This document shows positions 9,631 to 9,830 of a stretch of DNA of 33,744 nucleotides, piece after piece. This stretch comes from an uncultured virus (IMG/VR IMGVR_UViG_3300025010_002040). Its lineage: Duplodnaviria; Heunggongvirae; Uroviricota; Caudoviricetes. The stretch lies in the IMG/VR virus record IMGVR_UViG_3300025010_002040. The stretch is one strand, 5' to 3'. The notes under the pieces were generated by a model. The model did no database searches and had not been told where the DNA came from. It saw nothing but the letters and a program-made list of their open reading frames with translations. Made by a program: the position numbers and the translations under genes. How positions within the stretch are numbered: position 1 is the stretch's first letter; the number at the start of each line of letters is the position of its first letter.

Positions 9631-9830
9631 TTAGAGGATAACTCTAAATATTACCAAGAAACTGACCATACAGGTAAAAGGCTTTTAAACTGAGAGAACA
9701 GGTCAAACTCGAAAGAAATCACTACTCATCGACAGAGGTAAAAACGTCGGACATAGAACTAGAAACTGACTAGGTAAAAAAAGGTATGTCGGGTAATGCA
9801 AAGTTAAATTTTTGCATTGCTTTTTGTTTT
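9631..9830 (+). ncRNA. Putative structured sRNA/leader with four AGGU(A/C)AAA-loop hairpins
   Basis: Bounded by a promoter and an intrinsic terminator; repeated AAACTGA...AGGTAAAA units with different but pairable stems; no ORF. Confidence 0.6.
9793..9830 (+). terminator. Intrinsic terminator / attenuator
   Basis: GTAATGCAAAG-TTAAAT-TTTTGCATTGC followed by TTTTTGTTTT. Confidence 0.8.

Follow-up and report, generated by a model that had tools for sequence, protein, structure and literature searches.

The window analyzed here, i.e., the whole stretch of 33,744 nucleotides (nt) of an uncultured virus of the Caudoviricetes (IMG/VR IMGVR_UViG_3300025010_002040), carries on its minus strand a small-terminase-like gene (terS) at 9238-9582, followed by the large terminase gene (terL) at 7601-9238, and the gap between terS and the next minus-strand gene, the stop of which lies at 10041, is filled by a cassette on the plus strand. 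This accessory cassette of approximately 440 nt (9583-10020) adjoins the small terminase gene and contains, in this order, a promoter, approximately 190 nt in which no reading frame is conserved, a hairpin followed by a U tract, a Shine-Dalgarno sequence, an open reading frame (ORF) of 30 codons and a hairpin with a T run. An earlier reading of the same DNA, referred to here as the original prediction, had described the region as a riboswitch-like switch between terminator and antiterminator upstream of a toxin-like ORF. Homologues of the cassette fall into four lineages, namely the window type, the L144 type (L144, L146, L153, and L164), L169 and G192 (locus L085), and they were compared in two alignments that both span the four lineages, A4 with 13 sequences and A5 with eight. 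The promoter (9598-9626) is of the sigma-70 type, TTGATT and TATAAT being spaced by 17 nt with the −10 element at 9621-9626; it matches the consensus at 10 of 12 positions, and TATAAT is identical in all 13 aligned homologues. As positions 9629-9631 vary among near-identical copies and conservation begins at 9632, the transcript should start at about 9632-9634. The intrinsic-terminator-like hairpin (9791-9822, 13 pairs and a loop of 6 nt) extends with its U tract to 9832 and has the tail TTTGTTTTAT. A promoter scan found no promoter-like site on the plus strand between this terminator and the ORF, which therefore seems to depend on read-through. Behind the ORF lies the T-run hairpin, the likely terminator of a read-through mRNA, with arms at 9962-9977 and 10001-10016 that are 88% complementary; it failed the terminator scan.

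Within the upstream RNA, positions 9712-9727 (AAAGAAATCACTACTC) form a perfect 16-nt reverse complement of positions 9885-9900 of the ORF (GAGUAGUGAUUUCUUU, codons 7-12), a match that is the strongest feature of the region, that was not part of the original prediction and that would make the ORF arm the target of the RNA arm. No other inverted repeat of the 458-nt region is as long; none of 300 dinucleotide shuffles reached a match of 14 nt or more, the maximum being 13 nt in 2 of the 300. No other perfect copy of the arm is present within the window or the 2.05-Mb assembly, and 13-mers of the arm with one mismatch occur 4 times, compared to 29 times for a reversed-pattern control. The RNA arm (AAAGAAAUCACUACUC) lies within a 28-nt unpaired linker (9702-9729), the sole long unpaired stretch of the consensus fold, and has a mean unpaired probability of 0.70-0.76 versus 0.51-0.60 for the RNA body. 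It is invariant in 12 of 13 homologues and carries a 1-nt deletion in G192, and 13-16 pairable bases are retained in three of the four lineages, i.e., the window type, the L144 type and L169. Between these three lineages the ORF arm is 81-94% identical, compared to 42-68% for the rest of the ORF. Three single-base variants of the ORF arm were seen, of which the A-to-G changes in L153 and L164 keep a G-U pair and the one in L146 breaks a pair. In the minimum-energy fold of the read-through RNA the arm pairs at 16 of 16 positions in the window, at 14 and 13 of 16 in L144 and L169, respectively, and at 0 of 16 in G192. Compared to shuffled sequences, the fold of the window read-through RNA has z = -4.5 (0 of 100 shuffles as good), the values for L144 and L169 being -3.7 to -4.1, and the duplex energy of the window RNA versus its mRNA is better than in 60 of 60 shuffles. 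Base-pairing of the RNA with the toxin-like mRNA, which is a trait of type I antitoxins, is predicted by these sequences.

The ORF (MSLDSLRVVISLIGLLVSILNLLLNCKKKK, 9866-9958) starts with GTG 6 nt behind the Shine-Dalgarno sequence AGGUGA (9854-9859), of which GGTGA is invariant in 13 of 13 homologues. The predicted peptide of 30 residues consists of a hydrophobic helix with a core of approximately 17 residues and a lysine tail (KKKK). GGTGA, a start codon 6-8 nt further on and a hydrophobic peptide of 30-34 residues with a tail rich in K, N or R recur in all four lineages (the homologue in G192 has 34 residues, and in L153 a GTG-started frame was read from the alignment), and RNA and ORF co-occur in four of four. 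The nine columns of the ORF that vary among near-identical copies have synonymous or conservative outcomes. Judged from its sequence, the ORF is a real gene, and its peptide looks membrane-toxin-like with features of type I toxins, which are hydrophobic peptides of the membrane type with fewer than about 60 residues.

The RNA encoded upstream (9632-9825) is predicted to be a structured molecule of approximately 190 nt, which would exist as a terminated small RNA or as the leader of a read-through mRNA. Its RNAalifold consensus (alignment A5) consists of a 5′ hairpin, four hairpin arms, the 28-nt unpaired linker and the terminator, with 43 pairs and 97.1% of the cells paired. The 5′ hairpin UAGAG/CUCUA (9632-9646) shows one A-U to G-C change in G192. 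The first two arms (9656-9701) are formed by AAGA/UUUU, CU/AG, and ACC/GGU at 9656-9686 and by CUG/CAG at 9690-9701; the third (9730-9749) has the stem CGAC/GUCG and the invariant loop CAGAGGU, and in the fourth (9750-9790) GACAU/AUGUC (9750-9754/9786-9790) encloses CUAG/CUAG at 9759-9773. These hairpins, 9656-9686, 9690-9701, 9730-9749, and 9750-9790, agree with the four-hairpin domain that had been proposed. Five consensus pairs are changed on both sides, which 2 of 500 column shuffles also reach, and the covariation score of 0.097, compared to 0.054 in shuffles, is reached by 0 of 500; controls in which the partners were slid by 1-3 columns gave at most one pair changed on both sides. As only four lineages were found, such statistics have low power. 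In the helix 9750-9754/9786-9790, three of the five pairs are changed on both sides, and the pair 9656/9686 is A-U in three sequences, U-A in three and unpaired in two. Several conserved G-U pairs indicate that the plus strand is the RNA strand. The thermodynamic stability of the RNA alone is ordinary (z = -0.59; 50 of 200 shuffles as good), so that the case for structure rests on covariation. The RNA is more tightly constrained than the ORF: among seven near-identical copies with 19 variable columns, three of these lie in the 194-nt RNA (55% of the length; binomial 5e-4) and nine in the 93-nt ORF, and between lineages the RNA is 82-93% identical and the ORF 42-68%.

Searches for known RNA classes gave no assignment. 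With cmscan, Rfam 15 returned only noise at E up to 10 and nothing on 9632-9807 of the window, no family was found at E up to 1 in L144, L169, and L085, and a tRNA/tmRNA search gave neither a tRNA nor a tmRNA gene. TRF reported 0 rows of tandem repeats at a minimum score of 30, and a repeat search gave a single degenerate two-copy family of 21 nt (76%); a decoy made of ToxI-type pseudo-repeats was rejected, as tandem repeats are not present. The 5′ arm of the RNA (UAGAGG) can alternatively pair with a CCUCUA box at 9843-9848, 6 nt upstream of the ribosome-binding site, and TAGAGG/CCTCTA has become TGGAGG/CCTCCA in G192, i.e., one compensatory change; this pairing is weaker than the antisense match, and covariation of the local 5′ hairpin is seen at this position as well. 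Several other candidate elements were considered and rejected. A leader peptide across the terminator is not supported by a conserved frame: from the ATG at 9786, 18 codons can be read in the window, compared to 21 in the L144 type and seven in L169, and G192 has five codons from a GTG. A local hairpin that would mask the Shine-Dalgarno sequence (ACCU 9842-9845/AGGU 9854-9857) is weak and is not relied on, its U-A pair becoming U-U in the L144 type and G192. A convergent antisense antitoxin gene was likewise discarded, because the minus-strand promoter-like site at 10057-10029 sits in a backbone hairpin and is absent from phages with an empty slot at this position and from the other lineages; scans of the window, L144, L169, and G192 gave no antisense promoter common to the lineages.

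The original prediction had centered on a helix that closes the four-hairpin domain, here called P0, and this helix is found at the positions given for it: TATTACC at 9649-9655 pairs with GGTAATG at 9792-9798 by six Watson-Crick pairs and one terminal U-G pair, and the 3′ strand of P0 doubles as the lower 5′ arm of the terminator, which spans 9791-9803. P0 is also conserved in the homologues, where 90 of 90 cells pair in A4, with an A-U pair changed to G-U on one side in L169 and a C-G pair changed to U-A on both sides in G192. Since 38 of 500 column shuffles do as well, the covariation support for P0 amounts to one compensatory event. In the window alone, a helix of at least 7 base pairs (bp) with the arm arises in 418 of 2000 shuffles of the 152 nt upstream (21%). 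The claim that P0 and the terminator are mutually exclusive holds in part: the overlap of P0 with the terminator covers 7 of the 13 pairs of the latter in the window, L144, and L169, but only the lower extension of the terminator in G192, where a 9-bp core forms either way, so that strict mutual exclusion does not appear to be family-wide. Forcing P0 in the window does not abolish the upper 6 bp of the terminator hairpin (UGCAAA/UUUGCA), which are then detached from the U tract. When folding is followed along transcription, as had been suggested as a check, nascent RNAs ending at 9798, 9803, and 9809 have 6-7 of the 7 pairs of P0 in their minimum-energy folds in five of five lineage representatives, with a mean P0 pair probability of 0.73-0.95, and P0 is predicted to form first, before the terminator. 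In the finished 197-nt RNA, P0 pair probabilities are at most 0.00017 versus at least 0.98 for the terminator, and forcing P0 costs 8.5 kcal/mol; in the complete RNAs of the lineages, the terminator is favored over P0 by 1.5-5.5 kcal/mol. RNAalifold favors the full terminator with a closure of only 2 bp. The terminator scan passes the L144 equivalent, and the hairpins of L169 and G192, which are richer in A and U, are followed by U tracts and fail the G-C rule of the scan, were identified by folding only.

The geometry of a transcriptional ON switch is present, in that a conserved closing helix shares a strand with the terminator and closes a covarying multi-hairpin RNA upstream of a toxin-like ORF, and this antiterminator-like arrangement is genuine, with conservation in three lineages. 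The AGGU loops that had been named as binding sites fared unevenly: of the five AGGT sites, 9736-9739 alone is in a loop and invariant, three lie partly in stems, and 9772-9775 reads AGTA in the four L144-type sequences. Binding of a ligand or protein is not indicated, and the RNA has no match to a riboswitch or another Rfam family. Because the antisense match best explains silencing of the ORF, the terminator looks, by analogy with type III operons, more suited to setting a ratio than to sensing. A weak hint of expression and read-through comes from one metatranscriptome run, in which a 228-nt contig identical to 9717-9944 spans the terminator and the only contig that covers the flanking terS is a diverged one; contigs of such RNA libraries are shallow (depth 2-6), give no ends or strand and may be DNA, and stretches that they do not cover are uninformative.

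The explanation that we prefer, at a probability of about one in two, is that the cassette is a type I-like module of toxin and RNA antitoxin with the gene order of type III systems, in which the terminator sets an excess of antitoxin RNA. The single promoter at 9598-9626 would drive the structured RNA, and most transcripts would stop at the terminator (9791-9822) to give the RNA of approximately 190 nt, a minority reading through to give the mRNA for the membrane-toxin-like peptide of 30 residues (9866-9958). The RNA would expose the single-stranded 16-nt segment 9712-9727, complementary to codons 7-12, which could pair with the ORF in cis in the read-through transcript and in trans from the excess of terminated RNA. 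The long duplex would block synthesis of the peptide, most likely by serving as substrate for a double-strand-specific RNase or by blocking ribosomes. P0 is expected to form first and to compete with the lower terminator stem, and it probably sets, and could modulate, the fraction that is read through. The parts of the cassette and their conservation, the covariation of the RNA, the antisense match and how well it is conserved, and the conservation of the ORF as a coding sequence were computed here; from these we infer the transcript ends, the read-through, the toxicity of the peptide and the mechanism of its silencing, as well as a biological role, which may lie in prophage maintenance or in abortive infection.

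Several observations weigh against this explanation. The peptide has no match in Pfam, NCBIfam or PADLOC, models of type I toxins included, and phmmer returned 0 matches against 1.84 billion representatives; the lone lead, an Atlas cluster in which Hol_Tox accounts for 15% of the members, has a score of 0.82 and lies under the 0.9 line of the tool. The lineage G192 keeps the RNA fold, a terminator-like hairpin and an intact homologous ORF, yet 0 of 16 arm pairs form and the energy of its RNA-ORF duplex is equalled by 39 of 60 shuffles, and still its RNA arm is conserved at 15 of 16 positions. As G192 keeps the RNA without the match, conservation of the RNA cannot rest on the antisense match alone. 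Moreover, the arm is conserved but not covarying, as 0 of 16 pairs are changed on both sides, and the ORF arm encodes a conserved motif, [RK][VI]V[IV]S, so that its conservation may be partly at the protein level. Antisense pairing usually blocks initiation within the first five codons; the duplex at codons 7-12 lies outside these, which makes the silencing step less evident. Finally, a toxin mRNA that always carries the antitoxin segment in cis poses the question how the peptide gets made. With regard to G192, the match was lost on both sides, by the 1-nt deletion in the RNA arm and by an ORF arm that is identical at 6 of 16 positions, and this copy could be decaying or re-purposed. An alternative complementarity in G192 was considered and rejected, the best perfect match between RNA and ORF being 8 nt (GGACTAGA/TCTAGTCC).

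The reading put forward in the original prediction, in which the four-hairpin domain is a sensor and a ligand or protein, e.g., from an infecting phage, stabilizes P0 and thereby allows read-through into the toxin ORF, appears unlikely to us. In its favor are the pairing of P0 in 90 of 90 cells with its compensatory change, P0 as the minimum-energy nascent state in all five lineage representatives and the overlap with 7 of 13 terminator pairs in three lineages; the penalty of 1.5-5.5 kcal/mol in the finished RNA is one that a bound factor could overcome, a large number of unpaired positions in the domain do not vary among the four lineages, as in aptamers or protein-binding RNAs, and the domain is retained in G192 without the antisense match. 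However, the compensatory event is single and equalled by 38 of 500 shuffles, a 7-bp match is expected in 21% of single-sequence shuffles, the 9-bp terminator core of G192 is compatible with P0, and RNAalifold prefers the full terminator with its 2-bp closure. No riboswitch or leader family of Rfam was found in any lineage, the AGGU loops are mostly not conserved or outside loops, and a distribution of one cassette in one phage group and in 3 of 307 genomes of the order is unlike that of metabolite riboswitches. Sensing and the antisense lock are compatible, as a factor that covers the linker would open both. A still less probable variant, which we would regard as rather improbable, makes use of this: a factor that arises when a phage infects or the prophage is induced would bind the domain, stabilize P0 and cover the 28-nt linker, lifting both termination and antisense silencing, and without the factor terminated RNA would accumulate and mop up leaky mRNA in trans. 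If true, this would be an RNA-gated switch for abortive infection or lysis timing that has no known counterpart among the systems of type I and type III.

The stronger conservation of the RNA, 82-93% between lineages compared to 42-68% for the ORF and with 3 of 19 variable columns among close copies, could also mean that it is mainly a free-standing small RNA of the phage that binds protein or other RNAs as regulator, decoy or anti-defense molecule, the ORF being a separate membrane protein, exclusion- or holin-like, that is made by leak through the terminator, and the 16-nt match a secondary trim. The conserved linker in G192 without an ORF target, the strong terminator and three copies each of the invariant motif ACUGA and of ACAGG-like motifs, which are invariant too, would fit such a molecule. 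This reading seems doubtful to us, however, since the arm has no other perfect target in the window or its own assembly and few one-mismatch 13-mers (4 versus 29 in the control), RNA and ORF travel together in four of four lineages, and no partner gene is common to the neighbors of the cassette, which vary between copies. Less probable than any of these, and very unlikely, is an action of the repeats as DNA or on the other strand, either as sites for binding of the small terminase beside the cohesive end or as an antisense brake on late transcripts that cross to terS. All phage copies lie directly upstream of and divergent from terS, a conserved cos-like block (11228-11289) is nearby, and a transcript of the minus strand that runs into terS from its upstream side would have full complementarity to the RNA. 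But close relatives without the cassette keep terS beside a backbone hairpin, which shows that the cassette is not needed for packaging, the G192 copy does not adjoin terS, the helices covary, several conserved G-U pairs exist only in the plus-strand RNA, and TRF gives no tandem repeats. The more specific candidate of terminase-binding, cosB-like DNA repeats was rejected, because the cassette is optional and its pairs are strand-specific.

The preferred explanation, i.e., the type I-like module with type III gene order, can be compared with known systems. Type I antitoxins with short, non-overlapping complementarity to their targets are described for tisB/istR-1, zor/orz (zorO/orzO), shoB/ohsC, and dinQ/agrB (PMC4147584), and for the antitoxin RNA RalA of the prophage-borne pair RalR/RalA a complementarity of 16 nt is reported (PMC4041452). 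The cassette resembles type I loci in its tiny hydrophobic peptide with a basic tail, in a structured small RNA with a perfect match of 13-16 nt, in the long structured 5′ region of the toxin mRNA and in carriage by a prophage as for RalR/RalA. It differs from them in that its RNA lies upstream on the same strand, uses the promoter of the toxin and is separated from it by a terminator, whereas the named loci are divergent or antisense with promoters of their own; an antisense, convergent or divergent antitoxin gene with its own promoter, which is characteristic of type I systems, is not present in the cassette. Furthermore, the match lies in codons 7-12 and not in the 5′ untranslated region, the peptide has no counterpart among known type I toxin families, and one lineage is without the match. 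In type III operons, approximately 90% of the toxIN transcripts are reported to end at a terminator between the antitoxin RNA and the toxin (PMC4147584). The order of promoter, antitoxin RNA, Rho-independent terminator and toxin is shared with the type III systems ToxIN, AbiQ/antiQ, CptIN, and TenpIN, and so are the large excess of antitoxin RNA that the terminator gives and the carriage on a mobile element or phage. In contrast to type III, however, the cassette is without tandem direct repeats of approximately 35-45 nt, encodes a membrane-type peptide of 30 residues rather than an endoribonuclease of approximately 170 residues, and would be controlled by RNA-RNA pairing and not by binding of RNA to protein; no ToxN/AbiQ-like ORF was found downstream on the plus strand, and PADLOC gave no match. 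As the cassette lacks one type I trait and two type III traits, i.e., tandem repeats and an RNase toxin, it would be a variant rather than a member of either type.

A looser parallel is found in AbiF of a Clostridioides difficile prophage, which is neutralized by the upstream RNA RCd22 through direct binding, the RNA being reported as active in cis and in trans (PMC12373285). Here, too, a prophage-borne structured RNA lies upstream of and co-oriented with a toxic gene; however, RCd22 binds a large protein of the Abi_2 family and carries abiF motifs, whereas the cassette encodes a peptide of 30 residues and its RNA matches no Rfam family, be it abiF-type or another. With transcriptional ON riboswitches and antiterminator leaders, the cassette shares a conserved multi-helix domain and a closing helix that uses the 5′ arm of the terminator and is predicted to form first. 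It differs from ON riboswitches by the lack of a known class or ligand candidate, by incomplete exclusivity in G192 and by its restriction to one phage cassette, and antisense complementarity of an internal segment of the domain to the ORF that follows is foreign to riboswitches. Judged by titles and abstracts, none of the 42 records listed in full-text searches describes a type I locus arranged in tandem on the same strand. If the preferred explanation is true, the cassette joins the RNA-RNA pairing of type I with the shared promoter and the excess by an internal terminator of type III, and screens for type I loci that rely on antisense or divergent promoters would miss tandem modules. Being compact (approximately 440 nt) and self-contained, the cassette makes the competition at the terminator and the antisense lock each accessible by few point mutations. 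The conserved and covarying RNA of approximately 190 nt is in addition a family of Acholeplasma-group phages that is absent from Rfam.

Relatives of the cassette were searched for at several levels. Against GenBank phage records, blastn gave no match to the 458-nt cassette region. Among 80 related terS loci of viral contigs, eight contain the cassette, at an identity of 96-100%. An order-wide search of 307 genomes gave matches in 90 at E up to 0.01, of which 87 are hits of approximately 20-70 nt at 6e-5 or worse, and the three long matches are the genome that carries the window (G000), G050 (97%, another family) and G192 (81% over 240 nt). Pattern scans were performed with blocks common to the window and G192, chance matches being sorted by nhmmer: a 16-mer gave 32 matches in viral contigs, nine of them genuine, and a gapped 20-base pattern gave 10 of 10 genuine matches in viral contigs; of its 20 matches in metagenome contigs eight are genuine, and 12 are coding DNA without relation to the cassette. 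These scans added the L144 type, the lone fourth lineage L169 and more copies of the window type, and a profile search across all 179 loci revealed no additional lineage. By their record titles, two carriers belong to Acholeplasmataceae and Candidatus Izemoplasmatales. The cassette and its flanking phage DNA are at least 97% identical in assemblies of different families within one order (G050, locus L002) and in a Candidatus Izemoplasmatales contig (L103); such near-identity across families reflects either a wide host range of the phage or phage contigs that were mis-binned in metagenome-assembled genomes.

The phage group has in common terS and terL, an HNH gene, a metK-like gene and the block of approximately 60 nt at 11228-11289, which is cos-like, conserved and includes CCCACCCATGCGGTACC. 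The stretch between this block and terS is a variable swap slot (9583-11306). L062 and L066 have an empty slot, with only the backbone hairpin behind terS, and in L014, L015, L042, and L054 it is occupied by other genes. Occupants of the slot in the phage group encode proteins of 154, 186 (Cys-rich), or 394 residues, and all of these genes lie on the minus strand and have a hairpin of their own; the 394-residue protein of the window (10041-11225) matched no family above threshold. The same cassette has differing neighbors in the window and in L002. It is divergent from terS in all three phage-borne lineages, and the chromosomal G192 copy (L085, 1392-1740) does not adjoin a terminase gene. An 11-nt direct repeat (10 of 11 identical) brackets the cassette, with the left copy at 9584-9594; the right copy (10028-10038) takes up the loop of the backbone terminator hairpin 10023-10042 together with its 3′ half, and the repeat possibly represents a scar of insertion or recombination. 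The cassette is best explained as a self-contained accessory unit, a moron, carried by a siphovirus-like temperate phage whose hosts are Acholeplasma-like bacteria.

Further genes of the minus strand lie on both sides of this region. A full-length S-adenosylmethionine-synthetase-like gene (12199-13347) overlaps an ORF for an HNH-type endonuclease-like protein (11949-12242), both named from reading of their translations rather than from a family search. At 11307-11909, an ORF of 200 codons contains the motif HEVGH and gives weak metallopeptidase-like matches (PhageMetallopep, E 0.0037, below the cut-off; capP, E 0.001). Directly after the large terminase gene, an ORF at 6716-7597 encodes a protein of 293 residues with a RES domain (PF08808, E 2.6e-07, above the cut-off), RES being the toxin domain of RES-Xre pairs.

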